64,000 nucleotides of DNA from an archaeon (lineage in GTDB: Archaea > Iainarchaeota > Iainarchaeia > Iainarchaeales > JAAZKV01): positions 156,355 to 220,354 of the forward strand of contig JBAZUY010000001.1 in assembly GCA_041661245.1 (NCBI GenBank), written 5' to 3'. Positions 6,554 to 61,812 of the stretch are shown in pieces; position 1 is the first letter of the stretch; each line of letters begins with the position of its first letter. Under the pieces are notes generated by a model. That model had not been told where the DNA came from, did no database searches, and worked only from the letters and a program-made list of their open reading frames with translations. A program made the position numbers and the translations under genes.

Positions 6554-7540
6554 TTAATTTCCACTTAAAGCATTATTGTATAATGCATTAACATCACTTG
6601 CACTCAAAGCTTTATTCCAAATAGAAATTTCCCCAATTTTTCCTTTGAAATTTACTTTGTTTGGGTCAGCATCAGGCACAATATCCCCAAATCTTATTCC
6701 GGGGCTTGTAGCATTTCCAGTCCCATATGCCCCAGCAACTAATGAAACTCCGTTCAAATAAATACTTTTGAAATTACTACTTTTTGAAGAAACAACTGTT
6801 AAAAGATACCACTTATCTTTTTCCATCAAAACTGAATTAAAAATATCCTTTTCAACGCCACACGAATTATCTATGTTGAAGGAACAAACATAAAATATCA
6901 AATCCTGGTAATAATTTCTTAAAAAAACACCCCCCATATTATTCCCACTAGCCACGTTAGTAATAAACAAACCATAATTTTTTCCATCTCCGGAATCAAC
7001 TAAAGTAAAGCCTGGAGATAACCAAACGGAAATAGTTCTTTCAATACTATTGGGATAAGTATCTAAAGAAAGAACATCATTTTGTCCATCAAATTGCAAA
7101 GCATTCTCACCAAATAAACCAACCACCGGAAGTGGACAAGAATCACCAGAGCAAGTTAAAGAATTCTCGCCAATTGTATCTGCAACTTTCCCCCCAACAA
7201 CATTGTCCATTCTCCAAACAGAATTCAATTCAACAACTAACGGATCTGATTTCAAGTAATAATGATTATTCACCCTATAATACGCCCCACTAGTTTCTTT
7301 GAGTTGATCAAATGAACTATTCGCAGAAGTTATTCCAGAAATACTTTGCTGTTGACCTTGATTCAAAACACTTGTGATTGCAATTGTAACAATTGCTACA
7401 ACCAAAATCGCAGCACCAATAATCAACAAATACTCAATCGCACCCTGTCCACGCAAGTGGGCCTGCGCCCTAGAATTATCAAAAAACATATCCACAATAG
7501 CACTTTTCCACTTAAAAAACTCTTCGAAAAGTCCTTTCAC
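6554..7540 (-). CDS. Archaeal type IV pilin-like protein (class III signal peptide) with LamG/ConA-like C-terminal domain
   Basis: RGQGAIEYLLIIGAAILVVAIV matches the archaeal prepilin (K/R)G-Q..EY hydrophobic-stretch pattern. The true start is probably the internal Met (MFFDNS...). C-terminal ...KGKIGEISIWNKALSASDVNALYNN resembles LamG jelly-roll ends. Confidence 0.6.
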   Translation of the reverse strand: MKGLFEEFFKWKSAIVDMFFDNSRAQAHLRGQGAIEYLLIIGAAILVVAIVTIAITSVLNQGQQQSISGITSANSSFDQLKETSGAYYRVNNHYYLKSDPLVVELNSVWRMDNVVGGKVADTIGENSLTCSGDSCPLPVVGLFGENALQFDGQNDVLSLDTYPNSIERTISVWLSPGFTLVDSGDGKNYGLFITNVASGNNMGGVFLRNYYQDLIFYVCSFNIDNSCGVEKDIFNSVLMEKDKWYLLTVVSSKSSNFKSIYLNGVSLVAGAYGTGNATSPGIRFGDIVPDADPNKVNFKGKIGEISIWNKALSASDVNALYNNALSGN

Positions 7541-7580
7541 TAGAAATATAAACCTTGTTTGAAGTAAATTAATTACAACT

Positions 7581-7651
7581 GGGGTTATGGTATAGTGGTA
7601 TTACGAGCGGCTCCAGACCGCTATAACGGGGTTCGATTCCCCGTAACCCCA
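7581..7651 (+). tRNA. tRNA-Trp (anticodon CCA)
   Basis: Hand-folded cloverleaf. Acceptor GGGGTTA/TAACCCC, anticodon stem AGCGG/CCGCT with loop CTCCAGA, T-arm CGGGG-TTCGATT-CCCCG, discriminator A. No encoded CCA. Confidence 0.85.
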
Positions 7652-7679
7652 CTAAGTTATCTTTTTATTTTATTTAAAA

Positions 7680-8012
7680 CTAATATCTCACTTGAAAATC
7701 AATAAATTTTTCTGAATTCTTTATTTCATCCATCACAACATTATCCACTCGCACGTGAGAAGGATTCTCTTTGAAATAAAAAATAAATTCATTAATATTT
7801 TCCTTTTCTCCCTGCAAAATAGTTTCAACACAATTAAAATCAAAAGAATTTTTTACCCAACCGGTTAATCCAAGAGAATTTGCTTTTCTTAAAGCCAAAA
7901 ACCTAAACCCTATCCCTTGAACCCTGCCAAAAAAGTTAACTGAAAAAGTTACAATTACCATAGCAATTAGACAGGCAAAACAAAGTAAAAAGGTTTTGGA
8001 AAGCACAAACAA
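7680..8012 (-). CDS. acyP: Acylphosphatase
   Basis: FFGRVQGIGFRF matches the acylphosphatase signature V-x-G-x-V-Q-G-V-x-F-R. The ORF likely carries a spurious N-terminal extension; true start probably MVIVTF... Confidence 0.65.
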   Translation of the reverse strand: MFVLSKTFLLCFACLIAMVIVTFSVNFFGRVQGIGFRFLALRKANSLGLTGWVKNSFDFNCVETILQGEKENINEFIFYFKENPSHVRVDNVVMDEIKNSEKFIDFQVRY

Positions 8013-21903: not shown

Positions 21904-23250
21904 ATGATTCTTGAGAAACTACAAAAACTAGGAATGGCTGCTAGTTACGATTCATGCGGGGGAGGAAAAGAAAAATCCTTTAGAGAATATGGAATACCAT
22001 ATGAGTATCAAAATTTTATTTACAATTGCACACAATCAAGTGAAAATGTATTCACAAGAAAAGTAATGAATAGTGCAAATAAATCAAATTTAAGGAACAC
22101 AAAACTCTATGAGAAGCAAGAGGTTACAACTCAAGATAAAAAAGAGTTGTGGGGCAAAATGTCAAAAGTTCTTCCAACTTCAAAAAGAGAAGAACTAAAC
22201 AAACCCAATAAGTGCTTACTAATGAAAGTACTTCAAGACAATACCTGTGTTCATGATTGCAATTATTGTGTTAACACTACTTGCAAACAAAAAGTCAGTC
22301 TTGAACCAAAAGAACTAGCTGATTCATTTGAATACTTATGGAAGAATGGATACACAACAGGATTATTTCTTAGCAGCGCAGTACACGGCACACCCGAACT
22401 CAGCACTGAAAAAATGATTGCAAGTACGCGCTTACTCCGCGAAAGAGGATACAAAGGATACATTCACATGAAAGTACTCCCTGACACACCGGATTATTTA
22501 ATTAAAGAAATGGCACTTTATGCAAACAGACTATCAATCAATATTGAATCAACTACCACTCAAGGCTTTGAAGAAATCACTACAACAAAAAACTACAAAG
22601 AAGGAGTATTAAGAAAAATTAATACGCTTGATTTGATTAAGAGGAAAGTTGATCGTGAACAAAACAAAAACGCAGGTTGGTTTTGTGACAATGACCAAGT
22701 AGAAAATGGAACTGATATGCGATTCAAGTCATTTACTACCCAAATAATTATTGGTGCAAACGAAGAAACTGATCAAAACATTTTAGATAGAATGAACTCA
22801 CTCTACGAAGAAACTCAACTCTATAGAACCTACTTCTCCGCTTTCTCCCCAGTAGAAGGAACTGCATTTGAGAAAAGAAAAGCTGAAGACAAAACACGCG
22901 AACATAGATTGTATGAGACTGATTGGTTGTTCCGAGTGTATGGATTCACGAAAAAAACAATTGAAAGTGGACTTAATGAATATGGAAATCTTCCCCGAAC
23001 ACAAGATGTAAAGGAAAGCATTGCGATTGCGAACAAACAACTCTTTCCACTTGACCTTAACTCTGCAACACGAGAAGAACTCTTACTCGTGCCAGGATTT
23101 GGACCAAAAACTGTTGAAAAAGTACTACAAGTACGCGAAGAAAAAAGAATAAGAGAATTTACTGATCTGCTTGAAGTCGGAGTAAGAATCTCAAAATCAA
23201 AAAACTATTTGAATATTGAAGGAAAACAATCAAAACTAACTTGGTACTAA
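21904..23250 (+). CDS. Radical SAM protein with C-terminal helix-hairpin-helix (putative DNA modification/repair radical SAM family)
   Basis: CxxxCxxC motif CVHDCNYC; C-terminal HhH LLLVPGFGPKTVEKVL. Architecture is radical SAM plus a DNA-binding HhH. Confidence 0.65.
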   Translation: MILEKLQKLGMAASYDSCGGGKEKSFREYGIPYEYQNFIYNCTQSSENVFTRKVMNSANKSNLRNTKLYEKQEVTTQDKKELWGKMSKVLPTSKREELNKPNKCLLMKVLQDNTCVHDCNYCVNTTCKQKVSLEPKELADSFEYLWKNGYTTGLFLSSAVHGTPELSTEKMIASTRLLRERGYKGYIHMKVLPDTPDYLIKEMALYANRLSINIESTTTQGFEEITTTKNYKEGVLRKINTLDLIKRKVDREQNKNAGWFCDNDQVENGTDMRFKSFTTQIIIGANEETDQNILDRMNSLYEETQLYRTYFSAFSPVEGTAFEKRKAEDKTREHRLYETDWLFRVYGFTKKTIESGLNEYGNLPRTQDVKESIAIANKQLFPLDLNSATREELLLVPGFGPKTVEKVLQVREEKRIREFTDLLEVGVRISKSKNYLNIEGKQSKLTWY

Positions 23251-44835: not shown

Positions 44836-44919
44836 ACGCAGAGGCCGAGATTCGAACTCAGGTACCCTTTCGGATAACGGGTTAGTAACCCGCCGCATTT
44901 GACCGCTCTGCCACCTCTG
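44836..44919 (-). tRNA. Class II tRNA (Ser-type; discriminator G) with apparent anticodon ACU
   Basis: Reverse complement is GCAGAGG-TG-GCA-GAGCGGTCAAA-TGC-G-GCGGG-TTACTAA-CCCGT-[long variable arm]-CTGAG-TTCGAAT-CTCGG-CCTCTGC-G. The 7-nt loop TTACTAA places ACT at positions 34-36. No CCA encoded. Confidence 0.7.
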
Positions 44920-45108
44920 CTTGAAGACTTTCCGCCCCTTCAGGACCAAGTGAAACTTTTGTTTCACGGGTCAAGCAAAAGCCTTACTTTTGCTTTGACG
45001 TGTGCCCCCTCGCTTCGCTCGGTGACACTGATTTATTACAAATTATGCATTCACAGAGAATTAAAAACTTAACCAAAAACCTAATTCAAAAAAAAAGGTA
45101 GAATTTAT

Positions 45109-48986: not shown

Positions 48987-49307
48987 GTGCAAAAAGAGCA
49001 TGATTCATTATTGATTCAAAATGAATCATTTAAAAGTTCTTCGTTTCAGAGTAATAGTATGAACGTTGTCGTTAAAGGAGTTCCAAAACAAGTACTTGAA
49101 GAAATGCTTGCAAAAGGTTATGCGAGTACTCAATCAGAAGCCATTAGATTAGCTCTCTTTTGGTTTGGACAAAGCAGACTAAATTTAGACGAACTCGCAG
49201 CAAAAAAAATGGACAAACTTTATGCAGACATAAAAAGCGGCAAAAGAAAAACATACACTTTGAAGCAGATGGTACAAAAATACCCTGAATTCAAAGAGCT
49301 GATGTAA
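48987..49307 (+). CDS. Ribbon-helix-helix (CopG/Arc-type) antitoxin
   Basis: GTG start preceded by SD-like AAGGAGGT. NVVVKGVPKQVLEEMLAKGYASTQSEAIRLAL is an RHH pattern. Abuts the toxin gene. Confidence 0.55.
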   Translation: MQKEHDSLLIQNESFKSSSFQSNSMNVVVKGVPKQVLEEMLAKGYASTQSEAIRLALFWFGQSRLNLDELAAKKMDKLYADIKSGKRKTYTLKQMVQKYPEFKELM

Positions 49308-49562
49308 TTGTTTGAAATAATTCCTTCTGACGACTGGTATAAATGGTGGGATAAAGTTCCTCGCGAACAACACCAAAGAATAATCAAAAAAATGCACGAA
49401 CTAAAAGAGGACAAACAATTCAGACACTTAAAATTGGGTTCCCCCCACTTTGTGCTAGAAGCAGGACAATACAGAATACTTTTCATTGAAGAAGAGAAAA
49501 AACGAATACTTATTTTTGTTGGAAATCATAAGGACTATGAGAAATGGATTGGGATGAAATAA
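49308..49562 (+). CDS. RelE/ParE-family toxin
   Basis: 84 aa; TTG start directly after the antitoxin stop. ...FRHLKLGSPHFVLEAGQYRILFIEEEKKRILIFVGNHKDYEKWI fits the RelE/ParE beta-sheet core. Confidence 0.55.
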   Translation: MFEIIPSDDWYKWWDKVPREQHQRIIKKMHELKEDKQFRHLKLGSPHFVLEAGQYRILFIEEEKKRILIFVGNHKDYEKWIGMK

Positions 49563-49636
49563 ATTAATTCTTGCTTAAATTAATCTAGCAATCATTTCCA
49601 AAATCCTTTTGCAATATTATTAAATATTCACAAAGC

Positions 49637-50455
49637 GTGAGTAATTGTATGTACCGAACGAATAAGCACTTTGGATTAAAGAAGTTAAGAAAGATTGCTG
49701 GCGCTGACTCAAGATGGTTTGTAAGTCCTCACATTGTTTTAACTTCACCAGAGCAATTCAGAATGGCACAAACAAGAGGGAAGGCAAGACTACTTGTTCG
49801 AACTGATGAAGCGGGCAAAAAATATGATTACTTTATGCATGATTATATGCCCCGATTTGAAATACCAGGACCCACTCTATTTGGACAAATAGATAATCAA
49901 AAAGTTCGACTAGCTTCACTTGGAGAAAGAGAAATACAAAAAAGACTTGCCCAAGCAAAAGAAGATGCAAATATACAAAGATACCAAGGAAGACTTAGAT
50001 ACATCCTCCACCCAACAAGAAAACGCGAGGACATCGCTTGGACAGGACGAATACTAATAAGACAAGAAAGAGAAGTTACAAGGGACAAAAGAGGATTCAT
50101 ACAATTCCCCCAAATAGAAATAAGTCTCACAAAAAGCCCAAAACCTTATGAAAAACTCCACCGAAACCTACCCCCAACAACAGAATACAAACTAACATAC
50201 AAAGAAGGAAAATTCTCTCCAACAACACAAAACGCTCCCACAAAACTACAAAAAGAACAACAAAAACAAGCCACCCAAATCCTCACCCGACTCAAAGCAC
50301 TACTAAAAACAGGAGTTGAGTCAAACCAATTAAAACTCGGCCGAACAACCCAAATACATTTTATTTCTTGGAAAGAATCTCCTACTACCCTTGAGTTATT
50401 TGACTTAGAAGAAACACGAGGAGCAACACGAGTAAGAGTAAGAAGATTGAACTAG
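49637..50455 (+). CDS. Hypothetical basic protein
   Basis: 272 aa; no motif. Confidence 0.4.
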   Translation: MSNCMYRTNKHFGLKKLRKIAGADSRWFVSPHIVLTSPEQFRMAQTRGKARLLVRTDEAGKKYDYFMHDYMPRFEIPGPTLFGQIDNQKVRLASLGEREIQKRLAQAKEDANIQRYQGRLRYILHPTRKREDIAWTGRILIRQEREVTRDKRGFIQFPQIEISLTKSPKPYEKLHRNLPPTTEYKLTYKEGKFSPTTQNAPTKLQKEQQKQATQILTRLKALLKTGVESNQLKLGRTTQIHFISWKESPTTLELFDLEETRGATRVRVRRLN

Positions 50456-50540
50456 GGGGAAAATTTAGAAAGATAAGCGGAATTAGGAGTTTTGAACTGC
50501 GGTCTGCAGATTAATAAAGGACTTTGAACTTATACTAAGT

Positions 50541-51266
50541 ATGCCGGACGCAACCAAAATAGAGACTATTAGCGAACTTTTGAAAGCCGCCAAATGGCTT
50601 GAGGGAAAAACACTTGCAGAGATTTCAGATAGCATAAAAGACGAAGATTTTGTTCCAAGAGTATCATCAAAAGCTTATGTTGGATACGTTATTGAGAAAG
50701 GGTATTTTCAAATAGAACGAAACAATGATTCTAAACCAGATTTTCCCCAACTCGGAGTTGAATTAAAAACCTGCCCTTTAAAATATAATAAATCAAAAAC
50801 TAAGCTTACTGTTAAAGAACCGCTTTCTTTGAATATAATTAATTATAAGTTAGAATGTCAAAATACTGATTTAACTGAATCATCTCTATTTAAGAAAAAT
50901 AGAACTATTTTGTTTGTATTTTATATTCACGATTTTGAGAAAAAACGCTCAGAATATTTAATTAAATACACCTTTATCTGGCATATGGATAAACAAGTTA
51001 TTTCTGAGTTAAATCCGGATTATCTGAAAATAATCAAAATGATAAACGCAGGAAAAGCACATGAGATTCATCAAGACCAACATAAATATTTGACTATTTG
51101 CCCAAAACACGGAGGCAAATTCAAAGACCCTCTTTGCAAGAAATCAAAGACTACCCAACCATTTAGCAAAGCTCCTGCCGAAGTAAGGGCGTTTAGACTC
51201 AAAAATGCATATGTTGATTTAATAATTTCTCGAGAATTAGAAACAAATCCCTACTGGCCCCGTTAA
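50541..51266 (+). CDS. MutH/Sau3AI-family restriction endonuclease
   Basis: DFPQLGVELKTCPL closely matches the MutH catalytic block DFAALGVELKTIPV (D...E-x-K). Confidence 0.65.
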   Translation: MPDATKIETISELLKAAKWLEGKTLAEISDSIKDEDFVPRVSSKAYVGYVIEKGYFQIERNNDSKPDFPQLGVELKTCPLKYNKSKTKLTVKEPLSLNIINYKLECQNTDLTESSLFKKNRTILFVFYIHDFEKKRSEYLIKYTFIWHMDKQVISELNPDYLKIIKMINAGKAHEIHQDQHKYLTICPKHGGKFKDPLCKKSKTTQPFSKAPAEVRAFRLKNAYVDLIISRELETNPYWPR

Positions 51267-51301
51267 AGCTATTACTAATCCTCGTGTGTGATTTGTTAAT
51301 T

Positions 51302-52594
51302 CTATTCAGATTCAACAATTTTCAACAAGGTCTTACCAAGTTTTTCTATTACCCCAACAACCAACGCATTGCCCATCATAAAGTATCTCCATCGCAAAGG
51401 CATCCCACAGTCAGTCCATCCTCGAGGGAACTCGTTTAATGCCTCGCATTCTTCAGGAGTCAATAAACGCAACTTATTAGTTTTTGGATCCATTACCACA
51501 TGAGTAGATCGGTTCAAAGTGGCTTCGGAAGTAAGCATTGTCCTTGAAGGTAAGTTAAGATTATCCGGAAAAGCCATTCCCCCCTCGGCATAACTATATT
51601 CATGCCCACTTTTAGATTTACGATTAATCTTTTTAGCACCCTTAAGATAATTCCATTTTTCCAAACTTCCATTTATGAATAATTTATCAGGAACGACAAG
51701 TTTAGTTTCAGTTATTATTTCATGTAACGGTTTTTGCTTAGATAAAACTGGAAGTACCTTAATTGTTTCAACAACCCCTTTGGAATCCATAAACCCCGAA
51801 TTTTTGAAACTCGCTTCAAATTTATCTGAAACTGCTTTCAAATTCCCAAATGAACCTAAATCATAAGTTTCTCTAATGGACAAATCGGATTTTTCAATAT
51901 CAAATTGATTGATAAAAAATCCTTTCGATTTTATTACATCCACGTGAGATAATCCCGAAAGTTTTTTTGCATATGAAGTAGTTTTATTTGCAGCAAAAAT
52001 AAATGTTCGTCTTCTTCTTTGAGGGTGCCCGTACTCCGCGGCATTGATTACTCGCCACTCAACAACGTATCCCAACTCATTAAGGCACTTTAGAATTACT
52101 CCAAAATCCCGACCTCTTTGTTTTGCAGGAGATTTAATCAAACGATCAACATTTTCTAAAAGAACAAATTTAGGTTTTTTGCTTTCAATAATATCTCTTA
52201 TTGACCACCACAATACCCCTTTCTTTCCTTCAATTCCTTTCGCACCAGTTGTTGCAACTGAATAATCCTGACAAGGAAATCCACCAACCAACAAATCGTG
52301 ATTAGGAACATCTTTTTTTACTTTATTGATATCAGCACAAACAACAGTTGATTCTTTATTTGAAATGTGATTCGAGTCAAGTGATTTTTCAAAAAAATCT
52401 TTTCCAAAATAATTTTGAGTATAACATTGGAAAGCATATTGAGTCTGATGACTTTTACCCGGTTCCCATTGATTCGCCCAAATAGTTTGAAACACATCTT
52501 TTGAAGCCCTTTCAAAACCAAGTCGAAATCCACCAACACCGGCAAAAAGTTCTACAACTTTAATTTTACCTTTCATGATGATAAGAGGGATCAA
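51302..52594 (-). CDS. DNA (cytosine-5)-methyltransferase
   Basis: Motif I ELFAGVGGFRLGFE, motif IV GGFPCQDYS, motif VI ENV. Convergent with the endonuclease gene. Confidence 0.85.
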   Translation of the reverse strand: MIPLIIMKGKIKVVELFAGVGGFRLGFERASKDVFQTIWANQWEPGKSHQTQYAFQCYTQNYFGKDFFEKSLDSNHISNKESTVVCADINKVKKDVPNHDLLVGGFPCQDYSVATTGAKGIEGKKGVLWWSIRDIIESKKPKFVLLENVDRLIKSPAKQRGRDFGVILKCLNELGYVVEWRVINAAEYGHPQRRRRTFIFAANKTTSYAKKLSGLSHVDVIKSKGFFINQFDIEKSDLSIRETYDLGSFGNLKAVSDKFEASFKNSGFMDSKGVVETIKVLPVLSKQKPLHEIITETKLVVPDKLFINGSLEKWNYLKGAKKINRKSKSGHEYSYAEGGMAFPDNLNLPSRTMLTSEATLNRSTHVVMDPKTNKLRLLTPEECEALNEFPRGWTDCGMPLRWRYFMMGNALVVGVIEKLGKTLLKIVESE

Positions 52595-52611
52595 AAGCTT
52601 TTAAAACATTT

Positions 52612-52628
52612 GGAGAGTGTTTTGCCGG
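52612..52628 (+). promoter_or_regulatory. Recurrent motif GGAGAGTGTTTTGCCGG in the divergent MTase/52666 promoter region
   Basis: One of 7 instances of GGAG..GTGTTTTGCCGG. The others are at 48919-48937 (rc), 21852-21869 (rc), 21789-21800 (rc), 33680-33694, 38246-38262 and 29246-29263. Lies just upstream of the A/T-rich TATA-like box TTTTAATA. Confidence 0.5.
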
Positions 52629-52665
52629 CAACAAGATTTTAATACCCTTTTTCCATTGATTCAAT

Positions 52666-53841
52666 ATGCAACCAAAAAATGAAGAAGCATATAAAACGCT
52701 TAAACAAGCGTATGAACGTATTTTAAAAGAAGCTATTAATAAGAGTCATTATTTGAAAATTAATAATTTTCCAGCATATTCTGTTGAAGAAATTCTAAAG
52801 CTCTATAAAGAATTATCTGATGGAGCAGAACTTGAACTAATAAAAAATAATGATGAAAAACTATACTTTTCAATAATATCTTACTTTGAAAGTATCAAAA
52901 AAATCAACATTTTTCAGATAATCCTTCCGAAACTAATCAAAGACTCTGCAACACAATATTTTTCAAGTAAACCTGAATCTGAAAAGCTAATTTCAGGATT
53001 TGAATTTTGGTACATTAAAAACTCACCCCTATTCAAAGAAAGCTTTATTAGCGAAGTTACAAAAGGGCAGGAATTATCCAAAAGTTACCCCCAACTTAGG
53101 GCATATGCAAATCATTGCACAGGAATGTCAATGGAAAAACTAATCACCCACATCCCTCAAGAAAGTGCTTTATTTGAAAGAATAGAGGCTGGGCTAAAAA
53201 GTACAGACGAATATAAAGTTTTCATCAAAGAATTTAATTTATTTAATAAACTCGGGACAGAACTACCAGACAGAATCCGAAAGAGAATTTCAAAAGAATC
53301 TATGGAAACCTCTGAAAAACCAACACTTTCATTTGTAAGAGACCCTTTATTTTTAGCAGTAATTGGAATTTTTGGAGGATTACTCCTTGTAGTCTTTTTT
53401 GGAAATTTTACCGGATTTTTTACACAGTTGTTGCAACCACAACACAATTCCGATTTTCAAAGAGACACAAACCAAGAGATTTTTAATCAACTACACTCCG
53501 ATATTAATATTGTCAGGCAAGATGACCTCAACACCCCACCCACAAATACGGAAAAAATACAACCCCCCACTGAACCTCAGCTCACCTTTAACAATTTCTA
53601 TGAAGGCTACAATCAAGGATTTATTATTCAAAATAATACTGATTCAGACATCAATGCAAAATTAAGCTACACACGAATCCTTGACGGATACTATAATCCA
53701 GGATATTGTTCGGGCAACTATGCCGAAACAAAAGAAGTATTTATTACAGCCCATAGCAATTATTCTATAAATATACCTGGGGGGCAGTGTTCGGGGCACA
53801 TAGATAAAAATTCAATAATGTATACACTCTACCAGAAATAA
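52666..53841 (+). CDS. Hypothetical single-pass membrane protein
   Basis: 391 aa. Central TM FLAVIGIFGGLLLVVFFGNF; N-terminal helical domain; C-terminal Asn/Tyr-rich domain. Confidence 0.45.
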   Translation: MQPKNEEAYKTLKQAYERILKEAINKSHYLKINNFPAYSVEEILKLYKELSDGAELELIKNNDEKLYFSIISYFESIKKINIFQIILPKLIKDSATQYFSSKPESEKLISGFEFWYIKNSPLFKESFISEVTKGQELSKSYPQLRAYANHCTGMSMEKLITHIPQESALFERIEAGLKSTDEYKVFIKEFNLFNKLGTELPDRIRKRISKESMETSEKPTLSFVRDPLFLAVIGIFGGLLLVVFFGNFTGFFTQLLQPQHNSDFQRDTNQEIFNQLHSDINIVRQDDLNTPPTNTEKIQPPTEPQLTFNNFYEGYNQGFIIQNNTDSDINAKLSYTRILDGYYNPGYCSGNYAETKEVFITAHSNYSINIPGGQCSGHIDKNSIMYTLYQK

Positions 53842-53870
53842 AAATTTATATAATATGAAAAAATACTGCG

Positions 53871-54701
53871 TTAAGGCCAAGTATACCCTAATTTAAGGTT
53901 TGGAATTTTCCCATCAAGCTCATCTTGAATTTTGTCAATAAATTCTGCAAGATGCTCAATATTTACAACAAAAACTGTTTTTAGGTGTGCACCAACTCTT
54001 GCTTGCTGAGGGAGTGCTAAAGGCTTACCGCCAACATCCATAATTTCCGGAAAATCGTATGCAATGTAGGGCACCTCAGTTATGGGCGCAATCTCAGTTA
54101 ATTCCCCGACTGAATTAAGACCTGCTTTAGAATAATCTATCACGCCTAATTTTGCGTTAGTAACAATAATTGGAACAAAAATTCCCTGAACAAATTTCTT
54201 TTTCAACACATCTATTAAAACACAACGCAATTCTTTAAGCACCTGACGAACATTTTCATTAACCTCTTTATAAGAAACATTTACTTGGCCTCTTGATTTG
54301 CTGAGCCGTTTTTGTTCATTAATTTCAATAACGACATCAGAATAAGTGCCCCTAATAGAAGACCCAGTAGTGTGAACCAAAGGGGCCCAGTCTTTTTTTA
54401 TATGTGCAATATAAAGATGAGCTGGACGCTCAGCAACAATCGGAAAAAGCCAAGTATATGCAGTTCTTTTACATTCAATAATAAAAGTGTAATGCCCGAG
54501 CATATTTGAAACATGACTAATTATGTCTACTTCCACTCTCGAACCATCTTCATCAGAATAAACCTGTCCCCTGTTAAGAGACACTGTACCATGTACACCC
54601 TCTAAAACTTTTACCGCTTTGTCTTCCAAAAGGAGCCCTTTTCTATTAACAACTTTTACCAATTCAGGAAGTTCAGAGCTTAAAAGTAATTCGCCGGGCA
54701 T
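53871..54701 (-). CDS. PD-(D/E)xK nuclease-like protein (second gene of two-gene cassette)
   Basis: EVDIISHV...(17 aa)...FIIECKRT gives D-x(n)-E-C-K spacing typical of the restriction-endonuclease fold; 276 aa. Confidence 0.5.
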   Translation of the reverse strand: MPGELLLSSELPELVKVVNRKGLLLEDKAVKVLEGVHGTVSLNRGQVYSDEDGSRVEVDIISHVSNMLGHYTFIIECKRTAYTWLFPIVAERPAHLYIAHIKKDWAPLVHTTGSSIRGTYSDVVIEINEQKRLSKSRGQVNVSYKEVNENVRQVLKELRCVLIDVLKKKFVQGIFVPIIVTNAKLGVIDYSKAGLNSVGELTEIAPITEVPYIAYDFPEIMDVGGKPLALPQQARVGAHLKTVFVVNIEHLAEFIDKIQDELDGKIPNLKLGYTWP

Positions 54702-54710
54702 TAATTCACC

Positions 54711-55286
54711 TTATTTTTTTAATTTTTCCAAAACAATTTGATTATCTCTCAAAACATCTTTTAGTTCGTTATAACATTGAATACCCAAATCCACAGTTTC
54801 TAAAACTTTGTTTTCAGCATCTCTTTGAAAACGAGAATCGTCAAGATAATCATTTTCGTCAAGAAGATTATAATGCCCAATATTAGAGTGAAGTATTTTA
54901 TTTCTCAATTCTTTAAAACTTTTAATCTTTTTCCTTAAACTTGCTGGAGGAAATACTAAGTTAGAGTGCTTTGGTTTAACGCTTGACCTTTTTAATAAAT
55001 CTAATTTTACCATCCCTGAGAAAAACACAAACTCTTGCCTCAGAGACAACTCAAGAAAATCAATAAGTTCGGCACATTCCTCAGTGGAATAAATTTGACT
55101 TACCACAGAGTCAAGCAAATAATCGACATAAGCGTCAAGTCTTGCAATAACTTCTAGATAATATCCCTTTTTTTTAGGTTCAATAATCTCTTTGTCAAAA
55201 TCAAGTGCAGTCTCTATTTCCCCTTTATCTAATAATCGAGTAGGCATCTTACTTACCTCTCCCTTCGTGCTTTGAAAGTTACCCAC
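54711..55286 (-). CDS. HEPN-like protein (Rx4H motif), first gene of cassette
   Basis: ELRNKILHSNIGHY contains R-x4-H, the HEPN RNase signature. 191 aa; 9 bp upstream of the nuclease-like gene. Confidence 0.4.
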   Translation of the reverse strand: MGNFQSTKGEVSKMPTRLLDKGEIETALDFDKEIIEPKKKGYYLEVIARLDAYVDYLLDSVVSQIYSTEECAELIDFLELSLRQEFVFFSGMVKLDLLKRSSVKPKHSNLVFPPASLRKKIKSFKELRNKILHSNIGHYNLLDENDYLDDSRFQRDAENKVLETVDLGIQCYNELKDVLRDNQIVLEKLKK

Positions 55287-55402
55287 CCACGAGATGTCTT
55301 AAAACGAACCCATCCCTTTTTCTTATCATCCATAACAAAAACAAAATGCGGAACTTTTTATATGCTTATCGAATGAATTAAAAACTAAATAATCAACTGA
55401 CC

Positions 55403-56209
55403 TTATTTTCTACCAATATGCAAAATGTCGTAAACTATTTGAGCCAACCAAAGCATTTTGTAGGATAGGGCATAATGTACTTGATACCAAAAAGATTTAT
55501 TTTTCCAGTTCTTATTAAGTCTCTTTTTAGCTATTAAAACTACTTTAGCATATCTCTTCCTTGACATATTGGCAACAGCATTATACTCCGCAACCCCTTC
55601 ACTGAAGGTTTGAGCAACAAAAAATAGCAAAACAGACATAATCAACGCAAAAGCAAAACAAACTAAACTTATAAATAAAAATTCAAAATTTAATCGTAAA
55701 AAGAATAGAATAATCCCCACAACAATAGCCGCCAATAACTGTATTGAAGATAACCCAAAGATAAATGAGAAAAAGAATAACAGCACTACAGTTAATTTAA
55801 GGAAAATATTTGTCTCAGAATGTCCCAACTCGTGCAATAGAGTGTACTCCAACTCGTCTTTTGATCGAGACAAAACTCGCTTATTTATTATTATTGACCC
55901 ATAAATTGTTTTTTGGCCCCCAAACCAGTCTTTGTCATCTTGGTAAATGTAAACCGTAACATTCTTTCCCGAGGACAAAGAGTAGGTTTTCTTTCTCAAA
56001 AATGCTTTGTCACACTTTTTAAGATAATAAAAAGTTTTTTCATCCATCGAACCAAAAAAAGGCAACAAATATAAGGTATCTAAAATAATCATTCTTATTG
56101 AATCTACCAAACTATGCAAAGACAACCCCATAATTAAAATAGATAATTTTTCTATATGAACCTTTTGGTTCAAAAAAACATTAAAAGCAAAGGGCTTTCG
56201 CCCTTCCAC
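55403..56209 (-). CDS. Membrane zinc metallopeptidase-like protein (HExxH)
   Basis: YTLLHELGHSE followed by several TM helices. Confidence 0.5.
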   Translation of the reverse strand: MEGRKPFAFNVFLNQKVHIEKLSILIMGLSLHSLVDSIRMIILDTLYLLPFFGSMDEKTFYYLKKCDKAFLRKKTYSLSSGKNVTVYIYQDDKDWFGGQKTIYGSIIINKRVLSRSKDELEYTLLHELGHSETNIFLKLTVVLLFFFSFIFGLSSIQLLAAIVVGIILFFLRLNFEFLFISLVCFAFALIMSVLLFFVAQTFSEGVAEYNAVANMSRKRYAKVVLIAKKRLNKNWKNKSFWYQVHYALSYKMLWLAQIVYDILHIGRK

Positions 56210-56397
56210 TTTTAGACCTTGTTTTGTTCAGACTCTAAAAAAGAACTTGCACAACATACAAGAACAACCAAAGAGCCAATGTAGCTAAAAATATTTTTTG
56301 CATCTTAAAACCTCCGTGGGATGAAGCATCAACAGAACATTTAAGAAAACTACTCAAAAAGAGTGTCTTTTTTTCAGAACTACTAAAAAAATAGAAT

Positions 56398-56423
56398 CGT
56401 AGCAGGGGCTAAGCCCCCACTAC
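56398..56423 (-). terminator. Hairpin GTAGcaGGGGCtaaGCCCCcaCTAC downstream of ppdK
   Basis: GC stem about 15 nt after the ppdK stop, followed on the minus strand by a T-rich tract. Confidence 0.4.
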
Positions 56424-56437
56424 AACTAATAATTAAT

Positions 56438-59098
56438 TTACTTCTTCTTTCCTTTAGCATCTTTTGCAGCCATCTTTTCTTTGATTGCAGCGTGCGCAGC
56501 AGCTAATCTAGCAATAGGCACACGATATGGTGAGCAACTTACATTACTCATTCCGATTCTGTGACAGAATTCAACAGTAGCTGGATCTCCACCGTGTTCT
56601 CCGCAAATTCCAATATCGATGTTTTTATTCACGCCTCTTGCGAGTGCAACTGTTTGCTTCATCAATAGTCCAACACCTTCTTGGTCGATTGATTGGAATG
56701 GATCTCTTGCATAAATTCCTTTCTCAACGTATTTGCCTAAGAATTTACCTGCATCGTCTCTTGAGAATCCGCAAGTCATTTGAGTTAAATCATTTGTTCC
56801 AAATGACATGAACTCAGCTTCTTTTGCTAATACATCTGCTGTTAATGCAGCTCTAGGAACTTCAATCATTGTTCCAACAGTGTAGTGAACTTTTCCTTTA
56901 GCTCCAGTTTCTTTTGCAACTCTGTGTGTCAATGCAGCTAATGGAGAATATTCCTTAATGTTTCCAACGATTGGGATTTCTATTTCAGGAATTGCTTTAA
57001 TTCCTTTCTTAGTTACGTTCATCGCTGCGTTAAAGATTGCTCTTACTTGCATTTCCATTATTTCTGGATAAACAACAGCTAAACGACATCCTCTGAATCC
57101 AAGCATTGGGTTGAATTCGTGAAGAGATGCTATTGTATCAACTATTGCTTTAGGAGTTGTGTTTAACTCTTTTGCAATTTCTTCTATTTCTTTTACTTGA
57201 TCTTCTTTTGGCAAGAATTCGTGCAATGGAGGATCAAGCATTCTAATTATTACTGGTAATCCATTCATTGCTGTAAAGATTCCTTCAAAGTCTTCTTGTT
57301 GGTAAGGCTCAATTTTTGCTAAAGCTTTCTTTCTACCTTCAAGATCTTTTGCTAGAATCATTTCTCTAACAGCTTTGATTCTTGTTGCTTCGAAGAACAT
57401 GTGTTCAGTTCTAACTAGTCCGATTCCTTCTGCTCCAAATCCTCTTGCAATCTTTGCATCATTTGGTGTATCAGCGTTTGTTCTAACCTTTAGTGTTCTA
57501 AATGAATCTGCCCAACTCATTAAAGTTGCGAAGTCTCCACTTAAAGTTGGTTCAACAACAGGAACTTTTCCAATTATTACGTGACCAGTTGATCCGTTTA
57601 ATGAAATGTAGTCTCCTTCTTTTACTACTGTTGTTCCGCAAGTGAATTTCTTTCCTTTTTCATCCACTGTTAATTCGTCACATCCAGCAACACAGCACTT
57701 ACCCATTCCTCTTGCAACAACCGCAGCGTGAGAAGTCATTCCCCCTCTTGCAGTTAATATTCCAACTGATGAGTGCATTCCTTCAATATCTTCAGGAGAA
57801 GTTTCTAGTCTTACTAAAATTACTTTTTCTCCGTTTTCTGCTTGAAGTTTTGCTTCTTCTGCTGTGAAAACAACTTTTCCTACAGCTGCACCTGGTGAAG
57901 CTGGAAGTCCAGTAGTTAAATTCTTAGCATCTTTTAGCGCTTTAGTATCAAATTGTTTGTGTAGTAATTGATCTAGTGAAGCTGGATCTACTCTTAGTAC
58001 TCCTTCTTCTTTAGTAATCAATTTTTCGTTAACCATATCAACTGCGATTTTTACAGCAGCTGGTGCAGTTCTCTTTCCGTTTCTAGTTTGAAGCATGTAC
58101 AATTTTTCGTGTTCGATAGTGAATTCGAAATCTTGCATATCCTTGTAGTGCTTTTCTAGTTTAGATCTAATTTCAACTAATTCTTTGTAAACTTTTGGTA
58201 GAACTTTATCAAGTTCTTCAACTTTCTTTGGTGTTCTAATTCCTGCAACAACATCTTCTCCTTGTGCGTTCATTAAGAACTCTCCGTAGAATTTGTTTTC
58301 TCCAGTTGATGGGTTTCTAGTAAAAGCAACTCCAGTACCAGAATCGTCCCCAGTGTTTCCGAAAACCATTTCTTGAATATTAACAGCAGTACCCCAATCA
58401 CTTGGAACGTTGTTTAATCTTCGGTAAACTATAGCTCTATCGTTCATCCATGATCTAAATACAGCGTCTCTTGATCTCTTTAATTGTTCAATTGGATCTT
58501 GAGGGAAACTTTCTTTTGTTTCTTTTTTATAAATTTCTTTAAACTTTTCAACTAATTCTTTTAACATAGGGATTGTCATTTCTGTATCAAGTTTGATTTT
58601 GTTTTTGTGTTTTATTTCATCCATTGCGTGTTCGAATTTCATTCTGTCTACTTCCATTACAACATCAGCAAACATAGTGATGAATCTTCTGTATGAATCA
58701 AGAACAAATCTTTCGTTCTTTGTTGCTTTAATCATTGTAGCAGCAACAACATCGTTCATTCCTAAATTTAATATTGTGTCCATCATTCCTGGCATTGAAG
58801 CTGGAGCTCCAGATCTAACAGAAACTAATAAAGGGTTTTTTGTATCATTAAATTTTTTTCCAGTTTTCTTTTCAAGTTTTTTAACAGCTGTCATCATTTG
58901 TTCGTCAACAGCAGGAGTGTGTTTTTTTCCGTTTGCGTAATAAGCTTTACAAACATCAGTAGTAATAGTAAAACCGTATGGAACTGGTAATCCAGTGTTA
59001 GTCATTTCTGCTAAGTTAGCTCCTTTTCCACCAAGAAGTACTTTCATTGATCTGTCTCCTTCTTCAAACATGTACACTAATTTTTCTGCTTTAGCCAT
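56438..59098 (-). CDS. ppdK: Pyruvate, phosphate dikinase
   Basis: 886 aa. PEP-utilizer phospho-His region GGMTSHAAVVARGMG; ATP-grasp N-terminus; C-terminal PEP/pyruvate domain. Confidence 0.9.
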   Translation of the reverse strand: MAKAEKLVYMFEEGDRSMKVLLGGKGANLAEMTNTGLPVPYGFTITTDVCKAYYANGKKHTPAVDEQMMTAVKKLEKKTGKKFNDTKNPLLVSVRSGAPASMPGMMDTILNLGMNDVVAATMIKATKNERFVLDSYRRFITMFADVVMEVDRMKFEHAMDEIKHKNKIKLDTEMTIPMLKELVEKFKEIYKKETKESFPQDPIEQLKRSRDAVFRSWMNDRAIVYRRLNNVPSDWGTAVNIQEMVFGNTGDDSGTGVAFTRNPSTGENKFYGEFLMNAQGEDVVAGIRTPKKVEELDKVLPKVYKELVEIRSKLEKHYKDMQDFEFTIEHEKLYMLQTRNGKRTAPAAVKIAVDMVNEKLITKEEGVLRVDPASLDQLLHKQFDTKALKDAKNLTTGLPASPGAAVGKVVFTAEEAKLQAENGEKVILVRLETSPEDIEGMHSSVGILTARGGMTSHAAVVARGMGKCCVAGCDELTVDEKGKKFTCGTTVVKEGDYISLNGSTGHVIIGKVPVVEPTLSGDFATLMSWADSFRTLKVRTNADTPNDAKIARGFGAEGIGLVRTEHMFFEATRIKAVREMILAKDLEGRKKALAKIEPYQQEDFEGIFTAMNGLPVIIRMLDPPLHEFLPKEDQVKEIEEIAKELNTTPKAIVDTIASLHEFNPMLGFRGCRLAVVYPEIMEMQVRAIFNAAMNVTKKGIKAIPEIEIPIVGNIKEYSPLAALTHRVAKETGAKGKVHYTVGTMIEVPRAALTADVLAKEAEFMSFGTNDLTQMTCGFSRDDAGKFLGKYVEKGIYARDPFQSIDQEGVGLLMKQTVALARGVNKNIDIGICGEHGGDPATVEFCHRIGMSNVSCSPYRVPIARLAAAHAAIKEKMAAKDAKGKKK

Positions 59099-61544: not shown

Positions 61545-61585
61545 TAAAAAAAAAATAAAAACGATTAGAAACTTAATATAATTGA

Positions 61586-61669
61586 TGCACGGGGACGGGA
61601 TCGAACCGTCGAACGCACTAAGCGGCAGGGTCCTAAACCCTGTGGGTTTGACCGCTCCCCAACCCGTGC
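61586..61669 (-). tRNA. tRNA-Leu (anticodon UAG), class II
   Basis: Reverse complement is GCACGGG-TT-GGG-GAGCGGTCAAA-CCC-A-CAGGG-TTTAGGA-CCCTG-[long variable arm]-GACGG-TTCGATC-CCGTC-CCCGTGC-A. Discriminator A; no CCA. Confidence 0.8.
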
Positions 61670-61812
61670 AAATAATTCTAACTCGCACTTAGTGCAAGTC
61701 TAGTCAATAAAATATTAATCCAAAGGACCTTTTATAAAAGTTGCTAGAAGCCGCAAAACTAAGTCAAAAAACTACTTCTTAGCGATTTTTTTAAATTTTC
61801 TACTACTAAGTA

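Follow-up and report, generated by a model that had tools for sequence, protein, structure and literature searches.

Between an HD hydrolase gene and a pyruvate phosphate dikinase (PPDK) gene in the genome of an uncultured archaeon of the Iainarchaeota lies a run of short genes, several of which resemble parts of defence systems. The run occupies positions 48,987 to 56,209 of a 64,000-nucleotide stretch of contig JBAZUY010000001.1 (contig positions 156,355 to 220,354), and this whole stretch is referred to here as the window. The question raised by the locus is whether these genes form one compact defence island, as was proposed in an original prediction made from the letters of the sequence, or an accessory region built from separate parts. 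Part of the region was found to be variable relative to a homologous contig, L105, but the region was not one unit. The best explanation of the whole is a small accessory variable region of independent modules rather than one integrated element, and its probability was put at about 0.75. From the HD hydrolase gene to PPDK the stretch is a swappable toxin slot, then a conserved lineage-specific gene for a protein of 272 amino acids (aa), then a 6-kb indel. The region is real but is an ordinary accessory region, and the sole defence function firmly identified in it is a restriction-modification (R-M) pair of the Sau3AI lineage. All nine open reading frames (ORFs) listed in the prediction were found in place and on the predicted strands.

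The Sau3AI-lineage restriction-modification pair

One gene of the pair encodes a 241-aa protein that had been called a MutH/Sau3AI-like endonuclease. The DFPQLGVELKT block on which that call was based is present and contains an intact catalytic site, D67-x6-E74-x-K76. The protein matched the Pfam MutH family (E = 2.7e-23), the PADLOC REase_II model (2e-37) and the NCBIfam Sau3AI equivalog NF040973 (4.6e-52, 177.5 bits). The last match spans only model positions 3-220 of 475 and falls below the equivalog cut-off of 300 bits. The protein also aligned to residues 53-233 of Sau3AI in the PDB (4pxg) with an E-value of 3.6e-21. A weak match to Pfam MvaI_BcnI (4.3e-5) was below cut-off and covered the N-terminal 65 residues only.

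The catalytic domain is homologous to the N-terminal domain of Sau3AI and has the same D-x6-E-x-K site. The protein differs from Sau3AI in being half the size (241 vs ~490 aa) and in having an archaeon as its host. Its stop codon is only 35 bp from the stop codon of the convergent methyltransferase gene, so no C-terminal domain is encoded. Judged from the sequence, the 241-aa endonuclease is the catalytic half of Sau3AI only, the C-terminal effector domain being absent. An exhaustive HMMER search returned 997 relatives, and domain architecture was counted in the best 150 of these. The catalytic domain was matched over at least 170 query residues in 141 proteins; a second domain was present in 111 of them and missing from 20, while 10 were intermediate. 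In a neighbour-joining tree the nearest relatives of the 241-aa endonuclease were Sau3AI-type enzymes, and short single-domain forms were scattered. The query paired with its nearest relative P0006 (253 aa, 60% identity), the product of a complete internal gene on contig L103, and the sister of this pair was a 402-aa two-domain protein. The effector domain has therefore been lost repeatedly, and the short form is the derived one.

The convergent gene had been read as a C5-cytosine DNA methyltransferase, and this was confirmed, the gene being complete. The FAGVGG, PCQ and ENV motifs first noticed belong to five conserved C5-methyltransferase motifs that are present, namely ELFAGVGGF (I), GFPCQDYS (IV), LLENVDRL (VI), QRRRR (VIII) and GNALV (X). 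The protein matched PF00145 (5.4e-61, 207 bits with a cut-off of 22), TIGR00675 (4.5e-66) and, over its full length, the PADLOC MTase_II model PDLC03329 (2.6e-155). The pairing is kept in L103, where the P0006 gene is likewise convergent with a C5 methyltransferase gene whose product is 46% identical to that of the window. The flanks in L103 are unrelated to those of the window, so the pair travels as one unit. The nearest annotated methyltransferases (48-53% identity) are located on Bacillota plasmids. The methyltransferase gene of Priestia pBEH1 (50% identity) is convergent with a gene for a 491-aa "Sau3AI family type II restriction endonuclease", and a Mesomycoplasma copy adjoins a "MutH/Sau3AI family endonuclease". 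The partner here belongs to the same C5 methyltransferase subfamily as those found beside annotated Sau3AI-family enzymes, and the arrangement is convergent as well. On the strength of these matches the two genes are classed together as a Type II R-M system of Sau3AI lineage.

Contig L103 also carries an MNT (NTP_transf_2) and HEPN pair at 7208-7838. This pair and a MazE-like gene are within 6 kb of the L103 R-M pair, which is thus also located among toxin-antitoxin genes.

The probable target of the endonuclease is GATC. The window contains 105 GATC sites where 152.7 were expected (observed/expected 0.69), making GATC the second most depleted of the 256 tetramers. This is consistent with GATC restriction pressure and is no proof of it. 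Some points weigh against an active GATC system. TATA is still more depleted (0.58, the lowest of the 256), and genomes are commonly poor in GATC for other reasons. Both specificity and activity are properties that we infer from family membership and tetramer depletion only. CATG (0.72) and AGCT (0.76) were also low in the window. Avoidance of promoter motifs, or other restriction systems encoded by this archaeon, may account for the depletion of TATA, CATG and AGCT.

Catalysis in Sau3AI resides in the N-terminal domain, and the C-terminal MutH-like effector domain is non-catalytic and blocks the catalytic cleft until GATC is bound (bioRxiv 10.64898/2026.04.21.719898; PMC5766183). The effector domain of Sau3AI binds a second GATC and so relieves the autoinhibition; it is this domain that the 241-aa enzyme lacks. 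BcnI and MvaI are single-domain MutH relatives which act as monomers and produce double-strand breaks via sequential nicks (PMC5766183). Because the effector domain is missing, the 241-aa enzyme would most likely cut unmethylated GATC with no need for a second site. It may do so as a monomer nicking the strands in turn, as BcnI and MvaI do, or as a transient homodimer. Two sequential nicks are the likely working mode, although BcnI and MvaI recognise CCSGG and CCWGG, unlike the probable GATC target here. Host sites would be shielded by the C5 methyltransferase, presumably by methylation of GATC on the cytosine. The odds were considered even that the 241-aa enzyme represents the Sau3AI catalytic module in a naturally unregulated form, working as a monomeric cutter of single GATC sites.

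A six-kb block absent from a relative

The junctions of the block were compared with one relative, represented by the 1.5-kb contig L105, and this is the sole junction comparison. In L105 the gene for a homologue of the 272-aa protein (P0156, 52% identity) is followed by 90 bp and then by the 3' end of a convergent PPDK gene. The C-terminus of the L105 PPDK corresponds to window positions 56474-56764 with 99% amino acid and 83.5% nucleotide identity. The PPDK terminator hairpin is at the equivalent position in L105 and the window. The metagenome from which L105 came also holds HD hydrolase copies of 64-91% identity. As the 272-aa and PPDK genes are joined directly in L105, window positions 50456-56437 are missing there. 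This is demonstrably a presence/absence polymorphism at a conserved locus, seen in a single relative. Synteny with related genomes had been suggested as a check on whether the wider block is variable. The part just given was variable, while the 272-aa gene was conserved and lies outside the variable part. The R-M pair, a 391-aa ORFan and the nuclease module thus make up one 6-kb indel between the 272-aa gene and PPDK. In another relative, with a 76%-identical HD hydrolase, a different, convergent methyltransferase-like ORF is found downstream of the HD gene.

Identical gene order was found on 4-5 independent metagenome contigs of the same organism, so the arrangement is not an assembly accident. 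Exact-protein look-ups with the endonuclease, the HD hydrolase and PPDK returned the same organism only, again with identical gene order. PPDK was also used as a synteny anchor in species-representative genomes. Its best matches there (57-63% identity) were mostly from Bacillota and were uninformative on synteny.

The 272-aa protein was considered as a component of the block or of the R-M system. This was rejected, as its gene persists beside PPDK in L105, which lacks the block. It was also rejected as an R-M partner, since the sequence that flanks the R-M pair in L103 bears no relation to it. Three homologues were found (34-52% identity), and the family has 44 invariant positions, including KxxGLKKL, RTD, IxHPT..R....W.G and WK..P...E..DL.E.R. 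The homologue in L105 lies between a MazF-type toxin gene and PPDK and that in L104 is in an unrelated context. No family match was found in Pfam, PADLOC, NCBIfam or PHROGs, and none in viral contigs. In two genomes a toxin gene is directly upstream of the 272-aa gene on the same strand.

The block would most likely have been acquired by recombination, without a dedicated integrase. Acquisition is favoured because the R-M module behaves as a mobile unit and a homologue of the nuclease is found in a mobile element elsewhere. A number of results weigh against acquisition. The direction of the indel depends on one 1.5-kb contig, and a deletion in the L105 relative is equally compatible with the comparison. 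There was no GC anomaly: the block has a GC content of 0.32-0.35, as elsewhere in the window, which ranges from 0.31 to 0.38 throughout. Tetranucleotide deviation peaks over PPDK and not over the block. Codon usage of the six block genes was ordinary (z 0.01 to -1.63). The skew analysis that had been proposed for the island therefore gave no block-specific signal in GC, tetranucleotides or codons. No integrase, transposase or other recombinase domain was found in the ORFs with Pfam, NCBIfam, PADLOC or PHROGs. No att-like repeats, whether tRNA-derived or other direct repeats, were present in 43.5-57.5 kb, and no repeat of 9 nt or longer is common to both block junctions.

The strongest alternative is that the locus carried the six genes ancestrally and that the L105 relative has lost them, so that the region is not an acquired island. 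It is favoured by the composition of the block, which matches the rest of the window, by the absence of integrase, transposase and att-like repeats, and by the fact that the junction is known from one relative only. It was nonetheless regarded as a minority reading, possible but clearly the less probable. The R-M pair is self-contained elsewhere among unrelated flanks, the nuclease homologue is in an integrated mobile element elsewhere, and three genes of the block are ORFans or nearly so. The two genomes differ in the neighbouring toxin slot as well. An accessory region of independent modules is therefore retained as the preferred reading, and its features are listed in Table 1.

Table 1. Positions of the features of the region and its flanks in the window.
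Feature	Position	Strand	Basis or remark
Hemerythrin gene, upstream neighbour			PF01814, 8.5e-11
DnaJ (J-domain) gene, upstream neighbour			4.4e-8
HD hydrolase gene, upstream neighbour			HD_3, 7.4e-27
tRNA-Ser	44837-44920	-	ARAGORN and Rfam (53 bits)
106-aa putative antitoxin	48987-49307	+	GTG start, Shine-Dalgarno-like AGGAGG 7 nt upstream
84-aa RelE/ParE-superfamily toxin candidate	49308-49562	+	TTG start directly after the upstream TAA stop
272-aa basic (pI 10.3) lineage-specific protein	49637-50455	+	Conserved in relatives, outside the variable block
Variable block, ~6.0 kb, six genes (241-aa, methyltransferase, 391-, 276-, 191- and 268-aa)	50456-56437		Absent in L105
241-aa MutH/Sau3AI-type Type II restriction endonuclease (predicted)	50541-51266	+	Profiles, PDB match, catalytic motif
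C5-cytosine DNA methyltransferase, 430 aa (TTG start) or 424 aa (ATG at 52576)	51302-52594	-	Convergent with the endonuclease
391-aa membrane-anchored ORFan	52666-53841	+	Hydropathy
276-aa probable PD-(D/E)xK (NERD-like) nuclease with conserved C-terminal domain	53871-54701	-	Invariant residues; homologue at NERD cut-off
191-aa all-helical ORFan	54711-55286	-	9 nt upstream of the nuclease-like gene, same strand
268-aa membrane protein (242 aa by gene callers), putative metallopeptidase	55403-56209	-	HELGH and hydrophobic stretch
PPDK gene	56438-59098	-	

The nuclease-like protein and its minus-strand neighbours

The 276-aa protein had been assigned to the PD-(D/E)xK nucleases. It is identical to the NCBI entry WCW44_04080, a hypothetical protein of an archaeal metagenome-assembled genome. 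Three homologues were found (29-34% identity), giving a family of four members among 5.8 billion protein clusters. E26, D59 and E76-C-K78 are invariant in all four members, and a C-terminal TNAKLG motif is invariant also. One homologue, P0003, just passes the Pfam NERD gathering score (22.5 vs 22.1 bits) and another, P0004, is a weak match. One member of the family matches PADLOC CARF_PDDEXK (3.3e-4) and endonuclease-effector models. An AlphaFold2 (AF2) model of the 276-aa protein has an alpha-beta-beta-beta core with D59 on strand 2 and the ExK on strand 3 (pLDDT 50.5).

The family is similar to NERD (PF08378) in its invariant E...D...ExK residues and its predicted core. It is also associated with mobile elements, as are many NERD proteins. 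It differs in a conserved C-terminal domain of its own, of ~130 aa and without known relatives. Weighing against the assignment, the window protein itself had no NERD, Pfam or PADLOC match, and the AF2 models of the 276-aa and 191-aa proteins are both of low confidence. Foldseek returned nothing significant for the 276-aa model, with R2 RLE, XisH, MGME1 and MspJI among the matches at E = 0.26-2.2. Nothing was found when the family profile was compared with PDB sequences, or when the family was sought in viral contigs. The PD-(D/E)xK assignment thus stands at the level of the family and is not matched by any profile hit of the window protein. The 276-aa protein is likely a NERD-like PD-(D/E)xK nuclease.

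The Aenigmarchaeota homologue (contig L088, JACPJT010000007) is encoded between an integrase gene and a tRNA-Val. Positions 4046-15202 of L088 appear to be an integrated element, with genes for a tyrosine integrase, a NERD protein, the nuclease of the 276-aa family and a D5-type primase-helicase. Just outside the integrase-to-tRNA-Val stretch, at 2453-2710, is the gene of a ParE toxin. The upstream neighbour of the homologue is an 88-aa winged-helix-like ORF which is unrelated to the 191-aa protein of the window.

The 276-aa gene is probably co-transcribed with the gene of the 191-aa helical ORFan, possibly also with that of the HExxH membrane protein. The 191-aa protein had been presented as a HEPN protein forming a cassette with the nuclease, and neither part of that proposal was borne out. 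The protein collection contained only the 191-aa protein itself. No family match, including HEPN, was obtained in Pfam, NCBIfam, PADLOC, PHROGs or a trimmed-domain scan. The AF2 model is helical (pLDDT 56.7) and Foldseek matched it to generic helical bundles only. The motif in question, RNKILH, is at residues 128-133, at the end of a predicted helix. Statistical weight is uneven across the region: the endonuclease and methyltransferase matches are far beyond chance, whereas shuffling the 191-aa sequence yields a HEPN-type Rx4-6H motif in 35% of cases. A conserved cassette is not supported by the sole informative nuclease homologue, that of L088, which has a different upstream gene.

The 268-aa protein had been described as a membrane HExxH peptidase. 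The HELGH motif was found at residues 126-130, followed by a hydrophobic stretch at 132-207 (~3 hydrophobic helices), while peptidase profiles matched below cut-off only. These were SprT-like (E = 0.03, or 0.0044 when trimmed; 17.3 bits with a cut-off of 25.6) and the metalloprotease family phrog_87 (E = 0.0017). No match was found in phages with tblastn. A membrane zincin is plausible from the motif and hydropathy.

The 391-aa protein had been predicted to be a membrane protein and does have a hydrophobic segment (~221-256), which separates a soluble N-terminal part of ~220 aa from a C-terminal part of ~135 aa. It had no match in Pfam, NCBIfam, PADLOC, PHROGs, viral contigs or plasmids, and its halves likewise had none in Pfam.

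The three minus-strand genes could alternatively constitute one new defence or abortive-infection system, with the 191-aa protein acting as a HEPN RNase or a regulator. They are on one strand with gaps of 116 nt and 9 nt, they lie in the variable block next to an R-M system, the nuclease has invariant residues of catalytic type, and the RN-x3-H motif of the 191-aa protein ends a predicted helix. This reading was nevertheless thought unlikely. The 191-aa protein has no homologue and no HEPN profile or fold match, its motif is of a kind often produced by shuffling, and none of the three window proteins matched PADLOC. The L088 nuclease homologue has the winged-helix-like gene upstream and no peptidase. 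It is similarly doubtful that the trio, possibly together with the 391-aa ORFan, is an undescribed DPANN-type defence or abortive-infection module that travels with the effector-less Sau3AI-type R-M pair.

Toxin slot, tRNA-Ser and the meaning of the region

The genes at the start of the region had been described as a ribbon-helix-helix (RHH) antitoxin with a RelE/ParE toxin. The abutting genes and the TTG start of the second were confirmed. As in RelE/ParE modules, the two genes are small and abut, the antitoxin coming first. Gene calls on contigs L001, L085 and L086 also include the 106-aa ORF, and its product contains the RHH-like pattern VVVKGVP...SEAIRLAL. The 84-aa protein matched phrog_1213 "RelE-like toxin" over residues 2-75 (E = 1.2e-4). 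It also gave a BLASTP match (E = 5e-5) to the C-terminal strands of the Pfam-positive ParE toxin of L088, the two having a YRIL...strand...H motif in common. Like RelE/ParE toxins it has a C-terminal YRIL..(hydrophobic strand)..H..Y pattern and weak RelE-, Gp49- and HigB-type matches.

Other results weigh against the identification. No RHH profile, nor any Pfam, NCBIfam, PADLOC or PDB match, was obtained for the 106-aa protein, even with the trimmed domain, and its DNA-binding fold is putative. Unlike established RelE/ParE modules, the pair gave no match that reaches a curated threshold. For the 84-aa protein, Gp49 (E = 0.05, 14.1 vs 23.9 bits), TIGR02683 (E = 0.097, 13.1 vs 62.85 bits) and PD-Lambda-2_A (E = 0.013) were all sub-threshold, and no PDB sequence matched. 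The two genes are a probable module of a small antitoxin and a RelE/ParE-like toxin. In L105 the C-terminus of a PemK/MazF toxin (PemK_toxin, 2.1e-11) is encoded upstream of the 272-aa homologue, in the slot of the RelE-like gene. The toxin slot is swappable, being RelE-like in the window and MazF-type in the L105 relative.

The hemerythrin, J-domain, HD hydrolase and tRNA-Ser genes that had been placed upstream of the region were all confirmed by Pfam domains and tRNA calls. The lipoprotein and HD genes are separated by a 390-bp gap in the window, but the relative whose HD hydrolase is 91% identical has an additional 182-aa ORF at that place (L092 1042-1590). In the one whose HD hydrolase is 76% identical (L093 2-228) the HD gene seems to be frameshifted near its 3' end. 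The anticodon loop of the tRNA-Ser is TTACTAA, giving the anticodon ACT (A34). The usual anticodon for AGY codons is GCT.

The tRNA-Ser had been suggested as an integration site, and one alternative treats the 45-56 kb region as the degraded remains of a provirus or integrative element inserted there. A tRNA-Ser is indeed present, and the interval from there to PPDK has many small hypothetical genes. The tRNA-Ser is, however, 5.5 kb from the variable block, and the block is on the 5' side of this minus-strand tRNA. The intervening lipoprotein and HD hydrolase genes are conserved in relatives of 64-91% identity, and direct repeats were not found in 43.5-57.5 kb. There were also no integrase, primase or capsid-type matches, and no viral-contig matches for the 276-aa family or the 272-aa and 391-aa proteins. 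The tRNA-Ser was rejected as the insertion site, and a degraded element that entered there is very improbable.

Elsewhere in the window archaeal-type ValRS, UvrABC and MetK are encoded. A 448-aa protein encoded at 21904-23250 (+) matched TIGR03916 ("putative DNA modification/repair radical SAM protein") at 3.1e-72 without reaching the equivalog cut-off, and its gene is a few kb from uvrB and uvrC. At 61584-61670 (-) ARAGORN called a tRNA-Leu (TAG), for which the Rfam tRNA model was below its gathering score. PPDK, with its Bacillota best matches and the strongest tetranucleotide deviation of the window, also has the highest codon-fit z (+2.18), tied with one other gene. PPDK may be highly expressed or of bacterial origin.

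The least probable alternative, in which the 241-aa protein would be no restriction enzyme but a MutH-type nickase for strand discrimination with a housekeeping role, agrees with the protein's fold family, MutH-like size, single domain and DF..LGVELKT motif and with full-length matches to MutH models (PRK05070, 2e-18, 66 bits; TIGR02248, 1.1e-14, 54 bits), but is scarcely credible given that the Sau3AI model scores far better (177.5 vs 66 bits), that the PDB match is much weaker for MutH (3e-4) than for Sau3AI, that the closest tree relatives are Sau3AI-type, that the partner in a conserved pairing is a C5 and not a Dam-type adenine methyltransferase, that the gene is in a block missing from a relative, and that no MutL/MutS context was seen in the window. 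The 241-aa protein therefore retains its place as a Sau3AI-type restriction endonuclease.

Nothing here would surprise a specialist and the general interest is modest. The system is of the known Sau3AI-type R-M kind, in a recurrent architectural variant with a single-domain endonuclease. The gain is in the annotation of an uncultured archaeal genome, which has a functional-looking GATC/5-methylcytosine restriction system, a toxin slot with exchangeable content and, next to PPDK, a block of 6 kb that varies between strains. The 276-aa proteins are a very rare nuclease-like family tied to mobile elements. Single-domain Sau3AI homologues with cognate methyltransferases arise repeatedly, and they could be compact GATC cutters that do not need a second site.

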